From: Seison nebaliae
Taxonomy: Eukaryota
DNA length: 64,000 bases
Direction of reading: 5' to 3'
Assembly: GCA_023231475.1 (NCBI GenBank)
Contig: JALJEE010002959.1
Span: forward strand, 1-64,000
Of the stretch, positions 1 through 55,053 are shown one piece after another. Every line of letters starts with the position of its first letter. The stretch's first letter is position 1. The notes beneath the pieces were generated by a model, which saw nothing but the letters and a program-made list of their open reading frames with translations, was not told the origin of the DNA and ran no database searches. The position numbers and the translations under genes were made by a program.

Positions 1-498
1 ATAATATAACGTTGGCTGATGTTAATATCTACATAAGATTTGGTAGACCATGTCTCCTGAATGCAGATGATGTTAAATGTTTCGATATCTTTTAAGTTCA
101 ATGATCGTAGGTTGCCGTTTATGTTGAGTGAGATTAGTTTGAGATTAGTTGTAGATACAAACCTCTTAAGTTTAAAAAGCTTGTTTTAAGTAAAAAACAA
201 TAAAAACCTATAGTTCTTATATTGCGAAAATGCGGAATATGATATATAATCAATAAAAAAAATTTATTCCAACGTAGTTCAGAAATCAAATAAATTTTAT
301 TCTGCACTATGGAAAGAAGGTTTTTTTTATTACATATAGATTAAAAACTGAATCTTATCATCTATTATTGAACGAAATTAAGTAAAAAAAGATTAATATA
401 TTCTCTATTAATTATAAGAAAAATTTATTCAGAAAATATTCAGATAAGCGATATAATTGACAAATAATAATTAGAAATTAATAATTCAATTTGATGAC

Positions 499-505
499 TA
501 TAAAA
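499..505 (+). promoter_or_regulatory. TATA-like box upstream of the structured RNA element
   Basis: TATAAAA(GG) about 40 nt upstream of the first helix at 542. Weak evidence in AT-rich DNA. Confidence 0.3.
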
Positions 506-541
506 GGAGAAGAAAATTAGAATATTGTGAATTTTAATTTT

Positions 542-996
542 GCGCGTTAGTGAGAACGTTAAATTTTATTCAATTTTGCATTTCTAATTATCTTTCCTTT
601 TAGAAAAAGAACGAACATCTTTCACTAACGTGCTATTCGCCTTGATGGGTCTAGTTGAAGCGGTTGTGCCCATTACCTCTTGGCGACACTTGGGTGTTCT
701 GATGGGCAGGTGTCATCCAATATGGTAAAGAAACGTTCTCAATGGTAACCATTGAGCGGTTATCGAGAACTATTTCTGAACCTATTGTCCAGGTATATCT
801 ATGATATACTTGGGACTCAGTCTCCTCCAAAAACAAACGGCTGAGTTGATCGACATCTGGTGGCAACATCCACCCAGTGGGCGGGGTAATTGGAGCCTCC
901 GCATGACCTATCAAGGGCAAAATTTGTAATAACCGGTTCGGTCTCTCATCTTCTGGGCTGAGGGAATAAGTCCACGGCCCGAAGAGACCGGACCGG
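542..996 (+). ncRNA. Unidentified large structured ncRNA (possible Sm-class RNA), probably containing a 46-nt spliceosomal intron
   Basis: GC-rich island with nested helices 542-555/620-633, 640-651/905-916, 667-674/701-708, 709-714/852-857, 718-787, 788-814, 815-846, 881-902 and 933-946/983-996. The non-Watson-Crick positions within these stems read as G-U on the + strand. AAUUUGUA at 921-928 precedes the terminal hairpin. Confidence 0.65.
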
Positions 997-1535
997 AATG
1001 GAAGAAAGAAATGGAAAAAAGTTAAAATTTCATTATTATTGAAGGATAAACTAATAAACCTTTTTCTTTCGAAGGAAATGGAAAATTCGATCAAAATACT
1101 CAGTTTAATTCTCTGTTCAAAATCTTTATTTCATTTCATAATTTTTAAATAAAATTTTATCATAAATTTTTTCTTATATTGAATCTGTTTGTTCTAAAAA
1201 TCTAATGTTTGTAAGTTATTAGAAAGATGTAACATTTTAAATCAATCAATCGAAATCTTCTGATATTTCTCTTCGAACCATTTATAGGAATATGAAAAAA
1301 TTAGTTAAAATGAATATATTATGTTTTATTATTATGTATATTTTTTGGGTAAGACAATTCGACGATAAGAAGAAAAGTTCAGTTACGAGTAAGGTTTTCA
1401 TTGTTACAAATATTGTTCGCTTTAATTGAACATTAAGTTATCCATCACTTACTGTTGTGATTTTTATAGACTATTGTGTAATCGTCGTTTCCATGTGTAA
1501 TCATCATAAGTCCTTACTATGGCCGTGCATAATAT

Positions 1536-1777
1536 GGGTTCCATGTGATTTCGTCACCCTATGTTTTTTAAGTGAAAATCGGTGATTTGGTCACCGTTTT
1601 TAGAGTATTTCGGTGATTTCGTCACCCTGGAAAAATTTTTGAACCTAAATTTTGCGTATTTTTGATTAAACGGTGATTTCGTCACCATTTTTAGAGTATT
1701 TCGGTGATTTCGTCACCGTTTTTAGAGTATTCGGTGATTTCGTCACCCATTTAGCTGTATTTCGGTGATTTCGTCAC
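1536..1777. repeat. Array of palindromic CGGTGATTTCGTCACCG motifs (~30-nt period), probable MULE/Foldback-type terminal repeat
   Basis: Seven copies near 1546, 1580, 1611, 1671, 1702, 1732 and 1763, several preceded by TTTAGAGTATTT. Lies next to a MULE transposase fragment. Confidence 0.75.
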
Positions 1778-1984
1778 TAATTAATAAAACATTTTTTATA
1801 ATTTGCTTAATGTTTATGGAAATAAATATAATAAAATGATTTTAATTATCAATGGAAACTTTGTTTTATTATTGAAGATACAATAAGAGTAATTGTTGTT
1901 TAATTGCATAATTGTATTATTTTAATGTTAAGTACTTCTATTTACGTTTAACCAAAAATAATATAACCTAATATTTATCAAAAC

Positions 1985-2359
1985 TTTGTTGATTATGTTG
2001 AATACGAAACATCTAGTAAAAGAATTGTACCAGGATTATTTCCGATAGAATTGTGGAACAATTATCACCGGACGATTTGTGGAATGGGACGAACAAATAA
2101 TTTATCTGAAAGTTTCAATTCGCGAATTAGAAATGAAACAATTAGTCACCCAAGTTTGGGAAAATTAATTACTGTAATTGAGAATGTTCATCAAGATAAT
2201 AAAATAATAATGCAAATGAAAAGAATTGGGGAAAAACCTCAGAAAAAGAGGAAAGAGATTGAGAAAGAAGAAAAGCTGAAAGAATTAATTTCGACATATT
2301 CCAAAAATGAAATAATATCATTTTTGAATGGAATAGAAACTATAGTTTGTATACGATAA
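1985..2359 (+). mobile_element. Truncated MULE/Mutator-family transposase C-terminal fragment
   Basis: Reads FVDYVE...LFPIELWNNY...RTNNLSESFNSRI...HPSLGKLITVI, matching the LFP..WN / RTNN..E / HP signature of animal MULE transposases. The N-terminal DDE part is missing. Confidence 0.75.
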
Positions 2360-2479
2360 TAAATTCACGTCAGTTTCATAGTTTTTTATATTTTTTCAAT
2401 TTAGTTCTTCTAATTTTTTCACCACAATAATTTTCACCATTTTTTATAAATGTTTAAAAAATTTTCCTCAAAATTGATT

Positions 2480-2719
2480 TTGGGGCGTGCGTAGCGCAGT
2501 GGTCTACACACGTTCCACGCATATTTGCGAAATAACGTACCCTGCAGCTCGATAGAGTCATATTGGGGCGTGCGTAACACAGTGGTTTATGCACGTTCCC
2601 AGCGCCACAACGATGGGACATACGTCTCACGCTACATAGAGATCTCCTACCACTGACCGTAGAGGAGATCGATCAGAAAATTTATCTCGACGGGAATTTC
2701 ACTTAAAAAAAAAAAAAAA
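2480..2719 (+). mobile_element. tRNA-headed SINE-like element with duplicated head and poly(A) tail
   Basis: Two ~37-nt copies of TTGGGGCGTGCGTA(G/A)C(G/A)CAGTGGT (2480-2516, 2563-2599). Perfect Pol III A-box TAGCGCAGTGG in copy 1. A15 tail at 2705-2719. No clear B-box. Confidence 0.45.
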
Positions 2720-2722
2720 TGA

Positions 2723-2841
2723 CGTACCTCCCCACTTCATACCTTCTTCCCTTGTACCTTCCCACTTCGTACCTTATCATTTCGTACCTTCTCACTTCGT
2801 ACTAAAATTCCGACATACCTTCTTGAATTCGTACCTTCTTA
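2723..2841. repeat. Degenerate tandem repeat of CGTACCTT(CCCACTT), likely transposon subterminal repeat
   Basis: About eight imperfect copies of the (C)GTACCTT core at roughly 15-18 nt spacing. Confidence 0.65.
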
Positions 2842-3612
2842 CTGGCGCTCATTTTCGATATAACTTCGAGATTTACGAGATGAAATCGACATTGGAAGAA
2901 AGCTTATCACTGATAACGTGTACAGTGAGTTATTTTATGTTTTATGTGTTCTCTTTAACTTTTCACGAGTAGTTGTACACGTTGCGTTAGACATGTAGAT
3001 ACACGTGTAAGTTTATGATTTGTATATAGTGCATTAAAAATGTAGGAAAATATATTTGAGATAGATTGTCCAATTAATTATTGACACGTTGCATAAGGGT
3101 TTATTCATCGATTATAAATAGAATGTAATCTGGTTTTATATTTTAATGAATATTTTTACAAAATATTTCAAATTGAAACAATTTTCAATGATGAGAATTA
3201 CTGATTCGAGTCATCCGTCTTTCGATACTCGGATCAGTATTCTTTGTATGAAAGAATAAACGAAGTTCTTTTCATGACATGAAAATTAGTCGGATGTTTT
3301 GACAATTATGTCAATGAAGAAATCATATTAATATTAAGTTCGTTCACAATTCCTCCATTCGACAACAATATTGCATTTGGATTATTGTGGATTATCCAAA
3401 TATGGACTTATCATTATTAACGGAAATTATCCGTGATATTTATCACATGTGCAAGACAGATCGAGAAAAAACATTTATTTCATTTCTAAAACTATTTAAA
3501 TTGCTTATTTCTTTCTAAAATAAAAATTCCCACATTGCTTTGTAATTTTAAATTTCTTTTAACAATATAATTTTTTTCTAATTTCATTCGTCAATAAAAC
3601 CAAAAAAGTGAA

Positions 3613-3683
3613 CTCCGTGAAGGGGAATTGAATTCGGTCTCTCGCGTGACAGGCGGCGATACTCACCACTACACTATCGCGGA
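3613..3683 (-). pseudogene. tRNA-Asp(GTC) pseudogene or degenerate copy
   Basis: Minus strand TCCGCGATAGTGTAGTGGTGAGTATCGCCGCCTGTCACGCGAGAGACCGAATTCAATTCCCCTTCACGGAG aligns to eukaryotic tRNA-Asp, with a T6 terminator just downstream. The T-stem is disrupted and the anticodon and acceptor stems have mismatches. Confidence 0.85.
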
Positions 3684-4525
3684 TATGAACATTTTCACTG
3701 GAACATTAAATTATTTAAATTTTATTTTGCAATTTAAGTTAATTCCATTTTGGGCAATTTTTAAGAAATGGAAATAAAGAAATAATTCATATTGGAAATA
3801 ATGACAATTGTCGTTAATATGGATACTGTTCCAAGACTTGAGGAGAATTTAAATTCTATTCCAGATTACATAGTCCAAATTACGGAATTTCCCGGTTACT
3901 TTTAGAATTCCTAACAGTCTATTAATGGAATTCAGGCATCTATCTCATTTTCCATACAATCCATGAATTCTATGGATAGAGTATACAATCGGTACTGCCG
4001 CATCTTACTCGGATGTAAACGTCCCTTTAATCGAGCATTTATGTTCTGTCAATCGTTTCCGATATTAACATATCTTCTTTTCCTCACCCGACATATGCAG
4101 AGTGTGAACAATTCAACAGTCCTGCAAAATATTTCTGTCAATATTATGCTTTATTATATCTCACCTCTATGGAAGATTGGGAAGCTTTAGTTAACAATTT
4201 TAGTCTCGAATCATTTATTCCTATTCATCTGAGGGATGAGTTGTCTCGTGGTCGTGAGTTTATTTCCAGCAACAATTATTCTTCTCTTATTGATTTTCTT
4301 TACGCTTTACCCTATGGGGATTCCGCGTCTTAATAAAAAAAAATACACATGAAGAATAATTAAATAAATTATTAATTGAATAAATAAATTTAAAATTTCA
4401 TTTCAAATTGTAACCAATCAACAATAGTAAATAAGACAATATAATCATCCAACTATAATTTTTAATCTATTAACTGTTCCATCACAATCGCTAATTCGTT
4501 TCGTTGGATTGACGACACTTCGAAT

Positions 4526-6306
4526 TTATGATGCGGGACCATTTGCTCCCTGAAAGATTCGTACATAAGACGGTCCTAACGAAGAGTTTGATGAGACGTT
4601 ACCTAAATTGCATAATTCGTAAACATAAGCTCGAATTCGATCTTCCCATGAGAGCAATTGACTCCATCCTGTCATTTCAGTTAGTACATGAACTAGTTTT
4701 GTACTCTTCGACATTCTTTCAACTTTTCCCGACGAATAACGTTCTATCAATTTTTTGGATTTCTTAAAAAATTTAGATTCATATATACTGAAAAGTTGGT
4801 AGATTATTGATAATTCGGATATACCCTTATCCTCAATAAACGTTGGCCATGTCTTTCCGACTCTTGTCACATTCTTGAGTTGATTATTTAAATATTCGCC
4901 ACATTCCACCCATTCTTTTGTTGCCATTGTTTGGGCCAGAGCGCCGATATGTTCGAAAGTTTGTGATTGATTTCGAACTTCTTCGAAATCTGTCTGCAAT
5001 TTTTCGATTTCTGCATCAGTCATCGCTTGGGATTTGAAGGATGTTGTGGTGAGAGATGCCTCGCCTTCGTTTGACGTGTTCGGACTGACCGTATGTTCAT
5101 GAGGATAATTTGAAGAGGCTTTGAAACGAAACGTCGATTCAACAGATGTCTCAATTAGTGGTTCGGTTGTACTACAAATGAAACTCGGTAAACTTTCGGC
5201 GTCCTCATCCGAATCTTCCGTCTTCAATGGATTACCAATATTCTTGTGCATTTTTGGTGGTTTGTCACTTTCATCCTCTACATTCGCTTCAGTTTCATCG
5301 TTCGAGTGTTCTTTGTAATAATAATTGTGTTTAACCGATTTGAATTCGGTTAATTGTTTGGGATCATTCGGAGGTTTTTTTCGTGTTCGGATCTGATTCT
5401 CGTACTCATTTAAATATTTTCGAAGGATCAGTGTCCGATCACTTTCCTCCGAAATGTTGATGGAATATCCATTTATTTGATCCTGCTGTTCTCCGTCAAT
5501 GATTGATGATTTATTCGAAAGGGTAAAAAGGTTGTCATGGTCTTCATCGGAAATTTCATTCCTCAACCCATTTCCATTCGAGTTTGTTTCAATAAATTCG
5601 GCCAGTTCCGATTTAGGTACCAGAATACTCAGTTCCTCCGTTTTCTTATATTTCTCTGGCTCATCTGCTGTAACATCGACCGTTATTGTGGAATCATCTA
5701 AACTTGTGTCACTTGTGCAAGGACTCAGCGAACTGGGAGAAGAATTTTTTTCCTAAAAGAAAAATTTTATAAACTTCAAAATTAATCAAATTTTAACAAA
5801 TTCCGTAATTTGAAAATGATCAATTTCTTTTTCTTCTTCATCAATATCATCCAATCTTTCTTTCTTCGATCCATCCTTCCTCCTCTTCAACTTAGAACAT
5901 GTTGTTGTTAACTGTGAGAGAAATTATTAGATTTCCATAAAGACCTTCCATAATGATTAACAGTGTTAGATTCATTGTCAGTAGTTTCATCATCCGACAC
6001 ATCCTCGAAGTACATTTGTGCCACGTCGGCGAATTTCATGCCATTTCCCGAATTGTACTGTTCCGTCAACTTTTCATTCGATGAATTCGCATCATTGTCG
6101 GATACTAAAATGATTGTTCACAAATTTTATGAATTTAATTTATTTGTTCAAATAAAAAAATAACTGTTGTCATCCTTATGGACTAGGATCAGTGGAACTT
6201 TAGCTTTAGTACTCGTTTCACTATCGTCATTGTTTGGCATGACTAACTTTGCATTTCGATAAAGTTGATCAGCATTTTCGGTTCGTTCTTCAATGGTTCG
6301 TTTCAT
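4526..6306 (-). CDS. Uncharacterised acidic, largely low-complexity protein (~541 aa, 4 exons)
   Basis: ATG at 6306. GT-AG introns 6105-6164, 5912-5961 and 5753-5797 join in frame to the 346-aa ORF. No domain recognised. Confidence 0.75.
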
Positions 6307-15066: not shown

Positions 15067-15689
15067 CTCAGAATATTGTGATAAGAATGAAATTATCTTT
15101 TGAATGGAGTTAATCCTACAATACAACTACACTGAATCGAATTGAAATTTGAGAATGACAAAGAATTTCTCTATTATTTTATAATAATTATCTTCCCTTC
15201 TGATGAAAAAAGAATCTTGTTCCAACCTTATTCTCAATTACGAAAAACTATATATTTAAGCTTAATTTTAAAAATTGTTATGAATAACAATCATAATATC
15301 CATCATTGTCGTAATAAACCGTATTTAATTAACTTTTTGGATAGATAAGAAGTGGGAAAATATGAGTAGATGACTAACCAGCTTGATGATTTGTTGTTCA
15401 TGAATATTCTTATTCGTTTTAAGTTTGGGAAGAAAATTATTATTCAGATAACATATTTCACTCTTTTATGGTCGTTTTTAATGAAAAATTTTATAATGAG
15501 AAGAAATTTATTATTAACTCATTTATAAACAACACTACTCACTGTCAGTGGTTTATCATGTTTGCCCATTCTTGGGAAAGATCTTTGGGGGATACAAATT
15601 CATATTCTACGCTACGAAATTCATAGAGAAAAAGAATTAGTTTTAGTGGAAATTTTTTCTATTATAATAATTTTTAAAACTAACAATGG

Positions 15690-16000
15690 TGCACGTTCGC
15701 ATCCGCCGATATTTTATTTTTTTATTTAGTCGAAGTATTACACTCGGTTTTTGGCCTTTTTTTTACTCTGCATGTAGATGTAGATATGTATTTTTTATGT
15801 AGAATTTTTATACAGAATTGTATATAGAAAATATATTTTCTATGTAAGCCAAATGTAGAATATAAAAACAGAATAGAAAAAGGCCAAAATTCTGGTGGCC
15901 AAATACTTCGACTAAGGATAAAAAAATTTAACCATCTCTTTAACTTTATTTTTCCTGTCTTCATGTTTTTTTGGAGTCAAAGGGCCAATGCGAACGTGTA
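15690..16000. mobile_element. Palindromic MITE (Tc1/mariner-like ends)
   Basis: Terminal inverted repeats TGCACGTTCGCAT / ATGCGAACGTGTA. Inner inverted pairs TTAGTCGAAGTATT / AATACTTCGACTAA and TTTTGGCCTTTT / AAAAGGCCAAAA. Confidence 0.75.
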
Positions 16001-16369
16001 TTAAGTTATCCTTGGAAAGTTAAGTTCAAACTCATATTATTATTATAATTAGTTTTACTGATTTGGGATTTACTGAAATTTTTTTAAGTAAATTATATTC
16101 AATTTTTTTAAAATTAAATTTAAAAAATGTCAAGTATTAAAAAAGAGCTTTGTGAGAAATTTAACACATGATGAATGCCCCTCATAAGACACAATGCATC
16201 CATAAGTTATTTATAGAATAAAGTATAAATTAAATAACGATTAAAAGCGGAAGTATAATAATTATAATTTATATTTGTCTATTAAAATTTCGATCAACTA
16301 TGAATCTTCGATCTTTATAAATTATAAATTAAGAAAGAAGTCTATGGAAGAAGAATTTTGACATTGTTC

Positions 16370-47800: not shown

Positions 47801-50800
47801 AATTTCACATTGTAGTAATTTTTTAAAGAAATTTAATATAATTTTTGTTAATAAGAATTTAACCATTTTTTTTTAAATTTTTTCAATAAAAAGTAAATGA
47901 AGAACATTAGAAATCGAAAAACTATTGTAGATTGGATGGTGAGATGTGATGAAAGCAATCCCCATAAAAAATCTCAATATTTTTTAATGAAAGAAATGAA
48001 CGAAATTGAAATGAATGTGCTAAAACTGATTTGGCATGTTAGTTGAGGAAATGTTGGTGAGTGTTCTACTAGTACACAGTTTGATAAGGAGGATGATGTT
48101 CAGGGGATAAGTGTAGATTCGATGTTCATAACTCATATGTCGTTCATTAAGAATAGGAATTGAGAAGGAGGAAGAAGTGCGAATTTAATTGTTCCAATTT
48201 CCTCAATTTTTTTTAGGAATAATACAAAATTCACGCCCTTTTGGTTAGATGACGTCGTTTTCTGATTTGGTATTGAGATCGACGATACCACTAATAATGT
48301 TCGTCACACATTCTCATCTGAATCGATCTTTCGTATTATTATTCATGCGATTGAGGGATTGTAGGAGCGCATCATCTCTACCTTCGGCATTATTGTCCTC
48401 TCACTCGACATTTCTTTTTTTCCATTAAAAATTGTTGATGGAATTCCTTATTCATTCATGTTTCCCAATTCCATCGTCAATGCCCCCAATCTTTCCTAAT
48501 ATAATCTGTGCATTTTAATGAAAAATATTAATAATAAACGGTAATATTCGGAATATATTCGGGAAAATAGAAGACGACAACACCCAATTGACTGTTATAA
48601 GAAAATTTTATATTCCACAATCATCGTTTAGATTCTGTTCATTTAATTTCGAGAGATTATATCAGAATGTTGAACTGAGGTGATTTGGAACATTATGAGA
48701 ATATAATTAATATTTATTGATTAGTTTTTCTTCGCTTGTTTCTTGTTTTTCCGATTCAATAAGAATAATAAGTTGGAGAGAAATGATTAGAATCTTTTTA
48801 ATAGAAAGGAGAAAGTTAATTTCCTTTTGAAGTCGAAAGGAAATGGATGGCGTTCAATTAGAACATTGTCCAAGAGAGTCGTCCCTAACCATCTAATGGT
48901 TTGGGATACAATGAATGTTGGTTGTTATGTTGCCTTAGTCGATGATGGAGATGAAATGGATTTTTAAGGAAGTGTACTGATTTTTTATATTCAAATGAAA
49001 TTATCTTTCTACTACGTATCATATTTACTCCGTGTTTTCCCTCCCACCGACATTATCTAATATGATGGAATCATTTAGCAGAAAGAACAATATCAGTATG
49101 AAAGGAAATTATATTTATGAATGTTACCTTTATTTATGAAGAGTAGTAACCACTCTTCTTCTATTCGATTCGTGAACATTCACTCCAATTGAGCGATCTG
49201 AACAATGTTTCAATGCACATAAACCAGAGTGACAATGTGCACGTTTAATGTAGGAAGTTGCTGAACATATTAGTCCATGGCAGGGGTGTTAGAAGAGACA
49301 AGTTACTTGTATTATCTCCCACGATAATACAAGTAATATAGAAGACGAATTTGAAAATGCTTCTCATTTCTAATATTGGAAAAACATTGCTGGTGGTAAT
49401 AATGTCGGAGAATACTGTCATTTCCTTTCTAATAAAATTTTCTTATTAGAAATTCTATTGTGTCAATATATTATGCAATAGGTGCTTGTTCGATCATACT
49501 ATCATTCTTCGATATATGACACGTTCTAAATTAATGTCGACATCTACCCATTTGCATCATGGCGAATGATGGAATTTTTCTTCTTCTTCTTCTTCTTCTT
49601 CATCTTCTTTCCACATTATCATCGTTGTGATGATGTGAACATGAATTATGCGAATTAACGAATTTCATAATGAACATGTTATGATGAATCAACTGGGCGA
49701 CTGGTAGAAAGGAAACGATAATTGAAATGAAGTTATTGATCTCTTGTTAAATTATCAGAGTTTCATCATGAGAATCGAAATAAGACAAATTCAATTCTTT
49801 TAATCGAATTTGTAAAACTCATCAGAACTCCAATGAAGATCTCTTCTCTAACGATCTGAGAAGGAATTCATTCTCTCCTTGCCATTTTAATACTTATCTC
49901 ATTATTCACTTCATATGAATTAGATAAATTACCTTTCTCCGTTTGGTGTGTGTTGATGAAAACATTTCTTTGTTATCTATCAAAGAAGATGGAAATGTTT
50001 CGTCGAACCATAAATTGACAGTCGATGACATGAACATTATTCGGAAATGTTCTTCCATTTTATTCTATTACTTCGATGGCCAATGACGATATCTTATTTC
50101 AACATTACTTTCATCGCAATTCTTTTCGTGCTCATGAGAACTACACGTCTCACTTCTCCTGGAAGACACGACGTCTATAAGAATGTCTACGAAGATATCT
50201 CGAAGAATGTCGACGATCATGTCCTTTACACGTACGAAGCGAAAACTTCCAATATCAAAGGTTTCAACTCCTACCATTCCCAATCATCGAACCTTCTGAG
50301 AAGATAAATTGAAAAATTACTAAACTTAATACTAAAAAAATTTATGGAAATAAAAAGGAAATTTAATTTTTTAGGAAATTAAAGAAAAAATTATTAAGAA
50401 ATTCCATTGACATATTTGAAGCAGTAGAAATTCTATTAAACTTCTCCTTTTTCACTCTTTCAAAACAATTTAATTATTAATTTTTTTTTTAGAATCGTTG
50501 GACCAACCAAATAATCTGGGATTATCACACATCTCTCCAAACGCAGTACGAATTGTGTGGGAAGTGCCACATGTGATGGAAAGCAGCACAATCGCATCAT
50601 ATCAAGTACGCTACAAAATAGTGACGAGAGAATATCATGGGAACCGTACAAAGACACCAGAAGGCCTCCTCTTATCTGATTCGAATTCGAATATCACCAA
50701 CACCTCTTCCAATTTCATCGAGTTGCATCATCTTCAACCGGAAACTGAATATATCATCCAAGTGACACCGTGGCTACAAATTGCCACCTCCGACTATCAG

Positions 50801-53800
50801 AGTCCAATTACTTTTCATATAGAAAAAGGGAAATCGTCGGAAACTTTTAGTTTCGTTACACTTTCCGTTAATCAACCAGCACCGCAAATTATTCGAGTGG
50901 ATCGACCTGATCCAGGTACTATCATCAATCTGGAATGGGAACCTGTGCGCGACATTTATGGACGACACGTTCCCGTCTATCGTGTCTGGTATTCGGATGG
51001 TGGTCATTGGAATGAAGTCGTCGTACCTAATCGAACGCAAATCCGTTTGACGAATTTGCGGCCTCGTGCCAGTTATATTGTAGCGGTCCAATCTACATCT
51101 TTGAGAGGAAATACTTTAGTGTTTGGGAACATGTCCGAACATCATGTATTACGTCCTTTCACCGGTTATATTCATGATAATGATATACCGAAACCGATCC
51201 GTTTACAAATTATAGAAATGTCGGCCGATTCCGCCAAATTGAGATGGTTCGAACCGATGTTCCCTGATAGTCATGAAAATCGATTGAAGAGTTATATCAT
51301 CACATATGGTGGTAATGGCGAGAAGAAGTTTGTGAATATGTTCGGGAAAGAACAATCGTTGAGAATTGAAAAGAAGACGACTAATCGAATTCCTGCAAAT
51401 CAAAGAAGAACCGATTGGCTAATAACGAATTTGGAACCGAATACTCAATATTATTTTAATGTATCATCAGTGACAAATGACAATCGTATAAGTCAACCAA
51501 TATCCGTCATCAATGCGACGAAAGAAAGTGTACCAAAATTTTTAACGGCACCGGCTGTAATCGGTGCAGGAAAAGGCAATGTAGTTTGGTTGAAATTAAC
51601 ACAAACTACTCAGAGATATGGAAAGGTAAATTATTATCTTCTCTTTGTTCTTATGCAGAATTCGAGCGAACGAATCAGTACGAATTCTATACATCTATTC
51701 GACGACCGTAATGTGTTGAGAGATCGACGTCAAGATATTCCGTTCGACATACATGAAATTTATTCGGTCGATTCTCTCAGAAATCGATACAAGAGAAATT
51801 TGAAGTCAGATATCACTTATCCAAATCAGAGGAATGATTCGTTATATATTTCGGCGAATATATCGAGTGAAAATTTCGTTAAAGAATTCCCGTTAGGTGA
51901 TGGAAAATTTTATAATAATTTTATCAATCGAAAACTTCATGACAAAGTTTTCTATCGTGTTTTTTTGAGGGCGTGTGGCAATTCTGATCAATCTAATCAT
52001 TATGTGAGTAGTACGTTCAGTAACTGGTTCACCACGAAAGATGTCTACAAAACGAAAACGTCAGGAGTTTCGACGAATTTGCGCAATTCGTCAATCTATG
52101 ATGGTTTGCATGCAGGTAATAATTCGGGTGATAAACAAAGAAAGAATATCAGTCTAATTTGGATTATTGGAAGTGTTTGTGCAATCATCTTCTCCTTATT
52201 GATTTGTGTGTGTGCCATATTATTTTATCGAAGTAATTATGGAAAACGAAAGAGCCATAATCGAAACCGCCATATTCATCATCAGAAGAATGAAGAACAA
52301 AACGGTCTGATTAATGGGAAGATATCGAAACGATTAAAACATCAACAACAACTTGATGCGGAGCAGACGCAATTGCAGAATGAATATAAAAATATTATCG
52401 GTAATGATTTACATCCAGATGATATTGATGGTCAATTGAATCAGATGGATAACTGTAAAATTCCATTAGTTATTTCAGAAAAAACTAATAATGCTTCCGG
52501 ACTAACTGCCAATGGAATCACTAACAAGACAACAGCAACAACAACAACCACACACATGTCGAATAATATGACAAATACATTGCACATAAATAAGAAGAAC
52601 AACAACAACAGTGACAATAAAATGACGAATGAAATCGATAATGAGATGCGAAATCATTTTAAGTTGATACAAAATTCAAATTCGTCAAATTGTCCAAATC
52701 CGTCGTCGAATATACAAAACGGAAATTTATTAACTGTTGGCGATGCGAATCAACAACCGACGGATTTGTATATTTCAACCGACTGTGTATTGACGAGTAG
52801 TGCTGGAAATGGTACGGGAATCTCCGAATTATCATCAATGGCATTATCGTCGTCCGGTGGATTCTATAATAGTTCGATGCCTTTCCACATGAATGAGAAG
52901 AATCGATTAAAAAGTTATTGTTCAGCAACGACCGCTAATAATGATCCGGTAGATGCAGTGGAAGCATTGAGATCACAAAATACGAATACATCGTTACATA
53001 TGCATCCTCCCATACCAGCAGAACGATTACAATCGTATATCGAATATTTGAAGACGAATGATTCCATAGAATTGACAAGAGAATATGAATCGATTGAAAC
53101 GGGACAACAATTCGCTTGGAATATTTCCTTATTACCACAAAATCGATCGAAGAATCGTTATGCTAATGTCGTTTCATATAATCATTCGCGAGTGATATTA
53201 GAACCTATGAATTCGAATACTAAAAATATACTCTCCCCATCTAATCTCGGTACATCATCATTAGATGGTGAAAGTAATGATTATATTAACGCCAATTATA
53301 TTAGTGGATATCGTCGATCGAAAGCGTACATAGCAACTCAGGGACCATTACCAGAGACGTTTGTTGATTTCTGGAGGATGATTTGGCAAGAGAAGACTCC
53401 CATAATTGTTATGTTGTGTCAATTGGAAGAGAAGAATCGTATTAAATGTGACCAATATTGGCCGTCTCGTGAAAGTGAACAATATGGGAATATTGTCGTT
53501 CATTTATTAGAGTGCACCGAGTATGCATACTTTACTATACGTCTCTTCCGTCTTCATTTGATGGATCCAATGAATCAGGAACAATCCCAACAACAACCAC
53601 AACAACAACAATATCATCAAGTTAGACAATTTCAATATACGGCATGGCCCGAACATGGCGTACCAGAATATCCAACGGCATTTATTATGTTTGTTCGACG
53701 AATTCAAATTTGGAAGAGGAAATTATTCGAACGACAATATTTAAGTGATTATTCTCATGATGAATTCTCCACACCATCACCCAGTACGACAACGAACACG

Positions 53801-55053
53801 AACAATACAATCACAACCGCTACAACTACCACTGGATCGACTAACCAAATCTCTCCTAATAACATTCCACCAATCGTCGTGCATTGTAGTGCTGGTGTTG
53901 GACGTACTGGTGTTTATATCGTACTCGATATAGCACTAGATCGAATGAGTCAAGGTGAATTGAATGTCGATATTTATGGTTATGTCACTCATATGAGATC
54001 TCAACGCAATTATGTTGTGCAAACGGAAGAGCAATACATGTTCGCTTATGATGCGACATGTGAAGCAATCGAATGTGGTGAAACGGTTGTACCAGCTCAT
54101 CTTTTAAGAAATCATGTACATAAACTATTGAGATCGGTAGCAAAAGCAACTGCTTCCAATTATTCAGCCGCTTCACTTTCCGTCACAGAAATGGAATTGG
54201 AATTCCGTCGTCTCGGTGCTGTTAAAACGATTCCGGCGAAATTCACGGCTGCTAATATGGTTTGCAATAAATTCAAAAATCGGTTAGTCAACGTCCTCCC
54301 ATCGGAATGGAGGAGAGTTCCACTCAAATCCGTTTTCGGTGTGGATGGAAGTGACTATATCAATGCGAGTTATATTGATGGGTTTTGGAAGCAGCATGCT
54401 TACATTGCCACACAGGGACCATTAGCTGAAACGACCGATGACTTCTGGAGAATGTTATGGGAGCAGAATAGTTGTATAATTGTCATGTTGACGAAATTAT
54501 GTGAATTGGGTCGAGAACGATGTCATCAATATTGGCCGTCGGAACGATCTGCTCGATATTCATATTTCATTATTGAATTCGTTGCCGAATATTTTATGGG
54601 TCAATATATTTTACGAGAGTTCAAAGTGTGTGATATCAGAACGCAGGAATCACGAATAATTCGACAATTCCAATATCTCGATTGGCCGGAACAAGGCGTC
54701 CCCAAATACGTCGAATGTTTCATCGACTTCATAACGAATGTACATAAAACGAAAGAACAATTCGGATTAGAAGGACCGATCACTGTTCATTGCAAGTTCA
54801 TCAATTTCTTTCTTATTCTTCTCTTTCAAATTTCTCCATTTTTTCTAGTGCTGGTGTTGGACGTACAGGTGTCTGTATTGCGCTAAGCGTAGTTTTGGAA
54901 GAGATAAAATTTGATCAAACAATCGACATATTTCAAACCGTACGACTGTTAAGAACACAACGACCAGCTATGGTGCAAACTGAAGATCAATATCAATTCT
55001 GTTATCGGTCTGCCCTCGAATATTTGGGATCAGTCGAAAAACCAAATACATAA
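26871..55053 (+). CDS. Lar: LAR-family (type IIa) receptor protein tyrosine phosphatase, long isoform: signal peptide, 3 Ig, multiple FN3, TM, PTP D1 and D2
   Basis: Ig motifs ([30 protein letters not shown]), FN3 repeats, [28 protein letters not shown]1 [15 protein letters not shown]2 [26 protein letters not shown]. Inferred introns: 27049-27097, 27371-27429, 27613-27675, 27790-27847, 28055-28100, 28805-28860, 28982-29031, 29136-29185 (or 29194), 29412-29471, 29622-29672, 29865-42190, 42331-42383, 42535-42578, 42852-42911, 43143-50492 (donor uncertain), 54796-54848. Confidence 0.9.
39133..39171. repeat. (TG)n microsatellite, imperfect
   Basis: Direct reading of the sequence. Confidence 0.8.
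41251..41851 (+). CDS. Alternative first coding exon B of the LAR gene (signal peptide, furin-type site, FN3)
   Basis: ATG, hydrophobic [20 protein letters not shown]3 ending [11 protein letters not shown]...TKQS. Phase-1 donor at 41852 joins 42191 to give KQSVPSEP. Confidence 0.7.
50047..50260 (+). CDS. Alternative first coding exon C of the LAR gene (signal peptide)
   Basis: ATG at 50047 or 50083, hydrophobic [24 protein letters not shown] phase-1 donor at 50261 is in frame with the acceptor at 50492. Confidence 0.6.

Follow-up and report, generated by a model that had tools for sequence, protein, structure and literature searches.

What is encoded, if anything, by positions 542–996 of contig JALJEE010002959.1 (assembly GCA_023231475.1) of Seison nebaliae? 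The surrounding window, i.e., the whole 64-kb stretch analysed, is animal DNA with a GC content of ~31%. The genes recognized in it encode PIG-S, a WD40/RING protein, an ASC channel and a LAR-type phosphatase. Intron-derived stretches aside, the PIG-S frame agrees with a protein named for Seison nebaliae, an epizoic relative of the rotifers. The LAR-type gene (50474–54886, + strand) contains a 1470-residue uninterrupted frame and, in its first catalytic domain, insertions rich in Q, T and N. Another frame, of 408 residues (4526–5752, − strand), has no Pfam family, and its Atlas matches, at 0.92 with few shared features, are uninformative. By eye, 3614–3685 (− strand) resembles a decayed tRNA-Asp copy; ARAGORN makes no call, and its fold is no better than that of shuffles.

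Positions 1–3500 of the window are a patchwork of repeats, all of them multi-copy in public DNA contigs, and 542–996 lies within this repeat-rich block among transposon-like pieces. Downstream, a Mutator-like remnant (1521–2457, + strand) has an end with high-depth 31-bp tandem units followed by a transposase-like C-terminal frame (1967–2359), MULE being the nearest named Atlas cluster (0.89), which we take as a lead only. It is followed by a SINE-like element (2482–2720, + strand) with a duplicated GC-rich head, an A-box-like motif and an A-run at ~2705–2719, whose contig depth is 4000–5800 versus 13; SINEs are given as very few (0.03%) in the accessible part of the Seison genome paper. The GC-rich island of the preliminary description is found at 634–996 (49% GC) and does not extend over 542–633 (32% GC). 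The segment 542–996 itself is a real, unusually stable, few-copy fold that carries a strong intron-like signal and belongs to no known family.

Stability and architecture of the fold

The + strand of 542–996 folds at −181.9 kcal/mol (z −9.96; none of 100 shuffles is as good) and the − strand at −155.6 kcal/mol (z −6.2). The segment beats all 276 folds of the same length in the window (138 tiles of 455 nt, both strands). Once energies are corrected for GC, its residual stands at z −5.8, against −4.3 for the next best of the 138 tiles on both strands, the correction being a short extrapolation for a segment whose GC lies slightly above the range of the tiles. In tiles of 150 nt, 542–996 yields the two lowest energies of 426, whereas z-scores, based on 8 shuffles each, are lower in eight other tiles. 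Taken by itself, 604–996 still has a z of −7.65, and 200 of 200 shuffles are outdone in separate tests of junction 710–856, of the 5' stem and of the 3' hairpin. We note that the second place in stability among the 455-nt tiles is taken by 15561–16015 (z −6.9), a nested inverted repeat in AT-rich sequence that resembles a foldback or MITE element.

All six pairings named in the preliminary description are present where it placed them. In the preferred fold, the 5' stem is followed by a rod (640–916) that ends in a four-way junction, then by a linker and a 3' hairpin:

542–555/620–633, + strand: pairing of the 5' stem, 14 bp with 2 G-U
542–633, + strand: 5' stem with its loop; mean pair probability of the stem 0.96, z −4.8, kept in the spliced fold
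640–651/905–916, + strand: pairing that closes the rod, 12 bp with 1 G-U
640–916, + strand: long bulged rod, helix probabilities 0.82–1.00
660–663/899–902, 672–679/883–890, 687–696/871–879 and 707–717/848–859, + strand: inner helices of the rod
707–859, + strand: distal four-way junction with hairpins 718–787, 788–814 and 815–846; z −6.4 for 710–856
917–932, + strand: linker, mostly single-stranded, with AAUUUGU at 921–927
933–946/983–996, + strand: pairing of the 3' hairpin, 14 bp with 1 G-U
933–996, + strand: 3' hairpin, z −5.6
667–675/700–708, 709–714/852–857 and 825–830/890–895, + strand: further complementary pairings of the earlier model

The rod replaces the inner architecture proposed earlier. 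Hairpins 667–708, 857–877 and 881–902 can form alone, but those of their pairs that were tested have an ensemble probability of at most 0.0001, whereas the competing rod pairs have 0.90–1.00, and the fold of the preliminary description lies 6.7 kcal/mol above the minimum. In addition, the commoner allele at position 697 disrupts a pair in hairpin 667–708 and is unpaired in the rod. The proposed kissing contact between 825–830 and 890–895 involves segments that are complementary, but 890–895 sits in the rod, and the contact is unsupported because it requires hairpins that are nearly absent from the ensemble. The match is near chance: 5% of shuffles contain a 6-bp match between one hairpin loop and another, and in 66% the 16-nt loop has a 6-mer partner at some position. 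Loop–loop pairs are beyond what the folding model scores, and the kissing form may occur as a minor conformer; as the main fold it is rejected.

Which strand is transcribed was earlier argued from G-U pairs, and that argument holds in part. The + fold contains 15 G-U pairs and no A-C 1×1 mismatch, but a strand-symmetric count of mismatches over 10 stems gives G-T 5 versus A-C 3, which is not significant. The four longest stems have one mismatch apiece, all G-T, and an AT-rich foldback used as a control also leans 5 to 2. Strand energy gaps as large as that of 542–996 are seen in 9 of the 138 tiles. The G-U excess is thus only suggestive of a + strand RNA.

Intron-like loop and variation between copies

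A better strand argument comes from the loop of the 5' stem, around which the following signals are arranged:

499–506, + strand: TATA-like box, 36–43 nt 5' of the first stem
558–603, + strand: predicted spliceosomal intron of 46 nt (GT...AG, branch-like CTAAT, pyrimidine tract), inside the loop of the 5' stem
1021–1074, + strand: second intron candidate, with an 11-nt purine repeat on either side, 9.0 bits
1148–1153, + strand: AATAAA, a weak candidate poly(A) signal

The 558–603 stretch has the characteristics of Seison introns (GT..AG ends, a length within 40–63 nt, a GTT start and a G-poor, pyrimidine-rich body) and scores 18.6 bits. Of the 14 window introns on which the model is built, 11 score lower than this when each is left out in turn (leave-one-out range −1.7 to 22.6); three of the 14 are confirmed by the Seison PIG-S protein and one by LAR homologues, the other 10 having been chosen by eye for their frame continuity. 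Sites of at least 18.6 bits number 11 on the + strand and 3 on the − strand of the 64 kb, with none in the 28.3 kb antisense to LAR, and the score is reached by none of 2000 shuffles of the 5' stem loop. All three T4 runs of 542–996 fall within 558–603. In-silico removal of the stretch leaves the remaining fold unchanged and reduces the 5' loop to 18 nt, A-rich. The + strand reading is therefore independently supported by this loop, the best strand argument available, which as a sequence-based prediction points to a spliced + strand transcript and spliceosomal processing. The candidate at 1021–1074 was rejected as an intron, since its score is at background level: in 28.3 kb, 31 antisense sites do equally well.

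Another possible donor, at 550, scores 12.5 bits and is buried in the 5' stem. A hairpin predicted at 581–587/600–606 (probability 0.85) would take in both the acceptor of 558–603 and its branch-like site. By this folding model, RNA structure could gate splicing, with donor 550 in the stem and the hairpin over the acceptor. As an observation on the window as a whole, 12 of the 14 modelled introns begin with GTT, and position +5 is a G in only 2 (e.g., 10171–10121 on the − strand and 54796–54848 on the + strand; 10 of the 14 were picked by eye). Judged from these sequences, Seison 5' splice sites look derived; since the donors have this form, Seison U1 may be derived, and both U1 and U6 snRNAs of this animal may depart from the standard form.

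The TATA-like box is a possible, weak candidate for a polymerase II promoter, and 12% of shuffles of the AT-rich flank yield one. At the other end, contig comparison shows that the similarity of one copy type ends at 1179, just past AATAAA.

In public DNA contigs, 542–996 occurs in about four copy types, i.e., at 2–4 loci, a range that depends on whether the unit is a haplotype or a locus and for which summed contig depth is a rough guide. At each of positions 697, 756 and 958, the alleles sum in run X1 to a depth of ~50, compared with 13–19 for pieces identical to the window, and the depth at 958 splits into 13, 12.8 and 24.8; most of these variants recur in run X5, where the depth is about half as great. 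The neighbouring repeats reach depths of 500–5800. Similarity between copies extends hundreds of bases into both flanks, and one copy type lacks 527–715 through an internal deletion. Among 15 of the 16 joints, those listed, none removes the predicted intron 558–603.

The copies are most alike in the junction, where a single contig covers 716–899 and 3 differences are found in 184 nt, although, as rare variants drop out of contigs, the apparent invariance of this core may be overstated or owed to gene conversion. The 3' part differs by ~10% between copy types (19–21 differences per ~200 nt) and the flank beyond it by 15%. At least eight variants lie within 542–996, among the 40 listed of 271 for positions 1–3500. 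One double change is compensatory (C958-G977 to U-A), two others turn G-U into G-C (including U959-G976 to C-G), two lie at unpaired positions, and two break pairs (839 and 986); G986 to A breaks a pair of the 3' hairpin in one copy type, barring repair by an unlisted change. Together, the eight listed variants cost 3.4 kcal/mol versus 12.4 for matched random changes (P 0.015). This is modest evidence for selection on the fold, with covariation resting on one double change. Coding sequence, by comparison, leaves no mark: all six frames show 5–7 residue changes from 8–9 changed codons between copies, with no synonymous bias. A 159-residue frame on the − strand was rejected as a protein, its 14 phmmer hits being repeat-summing artefacts (at most 12.4 bits per stretch in the 5 examined). 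Outside the species, no exact-pattern match was found in viral or metagenome contigs, and none by blastn against phages. Among sequencing runs recorded as RNA, none was listed as containing the stretch, a result that bears neither way on expression.

Known RNA families and rival explanations

A search of the 64 kb with Rfam 15 gave no hit at gathering threshold. The best row over 542–996 reaches 20.6 bits against a cut-off of 44, and only chance-level rows appear at E up to 10. The diagnostic motifs are likewise absent or misplaced, and the preliminary description, too, had found none of those of SRP, RNase P/MRP, 7SK, U2, U3 or rRNA. The hexamer by which U1 reads the 5' splice site is absent from both strands, and the U1-70K and U1A loop motifs have no exact match in the element, although loop 751–757 with the commoner allele at 756 is one base off the U1A-binding heptamer. 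The branch-recognition, loop 1, ACAGAGA and U11 5' motifs sought for U2, U5, U6, U11 and U12 are absent or misplaced: a U5-like heptamer at 596 is the pyrimidine tract of the predicted intron, and the U11 9-mer at 849 falls within a helix. Box C of U3 and box C/D RNAs is found on neither strand, and the CR-I and CR-V motifs of RNase P/MRP are absent, again with no Rfam hit. The element is not described in the accessible parts of the literature on rotifer SRP RNA, telomerase RNA, snRNA or spliced leader, the minor spliceosome or Seison non-coding RNA; in the portion of PMC10639083 at hand, Seison is present merely as a label in a supplementary figure.

The most serious rival reads 542–996 as a leader or terminal repeat that belongs to a mobile element of low copy number and is folded for packaging or priming, a Penelope-like retroelement or a non-autonomous derivative being the most plausible kind. 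We consider this reading unlikely but to be reckoned with. The pseudo-LTR of Penelope carries a start site and a 75-bp intron in the 5' UTR, and such elements retain introns in genomic copies (PMC8557442, in excerpt); in the rotifer Adineta, Penelope-like elements are low-copy and leave solo repeats (PMC3846280, in excerpt). The multi-copy nature of the whole first 3.5 kb and the internal deletion in one copy type also agree with a mobile element. Against it, 542–996 is larger than such a pseudo-LTR and far more paired, and the pseudo-LTRs given for Adineta in the same excerpt of PMC3846280 measure ~200 bp and have a 5' palindrome. Neither strand has a hammerhead core and Rfam finds no ribozyme family, although some Penelope-like clades lack the hammerhead (PMC8557442, same part). 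No reverse transcriptase was recognized in the 19 frames scanned with Pfam or among the 27 frames of at least 45 residues read by eye in 1–4600, and no endonuclease frame was seen nearby. Finally, the 64-kb window contains no second copy, terminal repeat, tandem or inverted arrangement or clear target duplication. The preliminary description had named a dispersed multi-copy transposon part as the case that would overturn it; that case applies only in part, the element being low-copy, with about four types, and lying in a repeat-rich block, and a mobile-element origin keeps the chance just given.

It is quite improbable that the segment is a small-RNA precursor, i.e., a spliced primary microRNA or a hairpin RNA cut by Drosha or Dicer, exaggerated in the Seison style. 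Spliced, few-copy polymerase II microRNA precursors are common, and the rod offers a 12-bp basal stem with single-stranded flanks; pre-microRNAs of Seison range from 75 to >200 nt in the part of PMC12256650 available. However, the basal stem is followed by an 8-nt bulge and not by a well-paired duplex of ~22 bp, and the copies differ within the arms of the 3' hairpin. Compared by eye, none of the 29 Seison microRNA rows listed in the portion of PMC12553114 supplement 2 at hand resembles the element.

It strikes us as very unlikely that 542–996 is the structured UTR of an mRNA missing from the annotation; the coding exons would then have to lie beyond the window or to have been lost to the insertions downstream. 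The TATA-like box, the intron and AATAAA are mRNA-type signals, and the window starts only 540 nt upstream. However, after in-silico splicing no usable + strand frame exists over 401–1500, there is no coding signal, and 542–996 is nearly all paired.

We give slightly less credence still to a derived telomerase RNA made by a yeast-like route (polymerase II, splicing, an Sm site), which the preliminary description had left open and which gained no positive support. The size is near that of mouse and human telomerase RNA (397–451 nt; PMC12133305, in the part available), short repeats occur in two A-rich loops, and no rotifer telomerase RNA was found in the accessible literature. However, of the H/ACA 3' domain there is neither an H box in the hinge 917–932 nor an ACA after 996, a P6.1-like motif is absent as well, and no template matches four known telomere repeats, which may not be Seison's own. 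The unpaired segments of the rod fold contain no pseudoknot candidate. According to the accessible part of one survey (PMC5405514), no TERT was found in the bdelloid Adineta, and the text of the Seison genome paper has no match for 'telomer'.

A very derived SRP (7SL) RNA, or a 7SL-derived element, is barely credible. The element shares with metazoan SRP RNA (RF00017) a long rod that terminates in three hairpins. Over 13 nt, the base of the first of these hairpins matches the base of helix 6; this motif, at 713, reaches 16.4 bits, a score attained by 0 of 60 shuffles, and lies at the corresponding place in the fold, but it was chosen post hoc, and of six other segments five have no significant in-register match and the sixth matches best elsewhere. 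The comparison used 19 SRP loci (L001–L019; 17 of 19 confirmed), and the covariance model of the S domain, from 11 of them, is at noise (5 bits, E 5.6), leaving the 13-nt motif as the only match. The SRP54-binding symmetric loop, the tetraloop and the 3' motif of helix 8, helix 7 and the UGU box at the Alu position are all absent, and the element has additional 5' and 3' domains and a predicted intron, which does not fit a polymerase III gene such as SRP. Within the comparison set, L010 (7–535) is a metagenome contig in which fragments of LSU and 5.8S rRNA immediately flank the SRP RNA; its assembly is probably chimeric. An rRNA spacer was rejected, the depth being far too low and Rfam giving no hit.

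Proposed identity and its meaning

An uncatalogued spliced non-coding RNA gene is likely, because the fold is stable, its loop is intron-like and its copies are few and diverged. From the preliminary description, a novel structured RNA of the + strand survives, sustained by the family negatives, the stability, the pair-keeping variants and the intron-like loop, and the inner architecture and the kissing loop do not. In the more specific reading that we favour, and to which we give about an even chance of being right, 542–996 belongs to a small family of host genes (2–4 loci) for spliced, structured non-coding RNAs that are transcribed by polymerase II from the + strand and serve as protein-binding scaffolds in a nuclear particle. 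RNA polymerase II would start near the TATA-like box, the 46-nt intron would be removed from the first hairpin, and the spliced RNA of ~410 nt would fold into the 5' hairpin, the rod with its four-way junction, the U-rich linker and the 3' hairpin before serving as the scaffold. The helices with their stability, the intron-like signals and the copy types with their differences are observed in the sequences, whereas transcription, splicing and the ends (~530–542 to 996 or beyond) are all inferred.

Within the host-gene reading, it is conceivable but rather doubtful that an Sm ring would assemble on AAUUUGU as on U1 and U11, by analogy, with the near-invariant junction hairpins as a protein-binding surface. 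The canonical Sm pattern is absent from the element; the linker heptamer at 921–927 is identical to the heptamer of the U1 snRNA Sm site, a match noticed post hoc whose exact motif arises in 0.3%, and loose form in 1.8%, of linker shuffles. The tight four-way junction with three hairpins, the U-rich single strand and the terminal hairpin resemble U1 and U11, as do the several gene copies and the loop 751–757 near the U1A heptamer in the case of U1. Unlike those snRNAs, the element is ~410 nt when spliced, bears its junction on a rod of ~70 pairs instead of a helix of 4–5 bp, lacks the end that reads the 5' splice site, the U1-70K loop and the U11 5' motif, has a predicted intron, and obtains no Rfam score. 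It is Sm-like at best, membership in U1 and in U11 having failed.

Intron-bearing Sm-class snRNAs are not known to occur in animals. The closest precedent lies in fungi, where spliceosomal introns are frequent in U3 and U6, small structured RNAs of few copies, and those of U3 almost always sit in the 5'-most stem-loop (PMC5832005, in the accessible part); the present element is from an animal and lacks box C, the U6 ACAGAGA box and any Rfam hit. A spliceosomal-type RNA that is itself spliced is thus described for fungal U3 and U6, and literature searches, in the portions of the sources available, turned up no animal case. The boldest form of the host-gene reading, which we regard as improbable, is an Sm-class snRNA of giant size with an intron and a U1/U11 architecture, confined to Seisonidea and tied to the derived GUU-type 5' splice sites of this animal.

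Seison has lost about one-third of the conserved animal genes and most microRNA families, and it lengthens its microRNA hairpins (PMC8351084 and PMC12256650 for the losses, PMC12256650 for the hairpins, each in excerpt). Despite this loss, it appears to keep several copies of a ~410-nt RNA outside the catalogued families, likely with an intron of its own. Were the segment a mobile-element leader instead, the RNA fold would be new and well defined, but its interest modest. Per the accessible part of one survey (PMC5832005), no small structured RNAs other than U3 and U6 have introns frequently; a counterpart in an animal would come as a surprise, as would a new Sm-class particle in a lineage whose splice donors are unusual.
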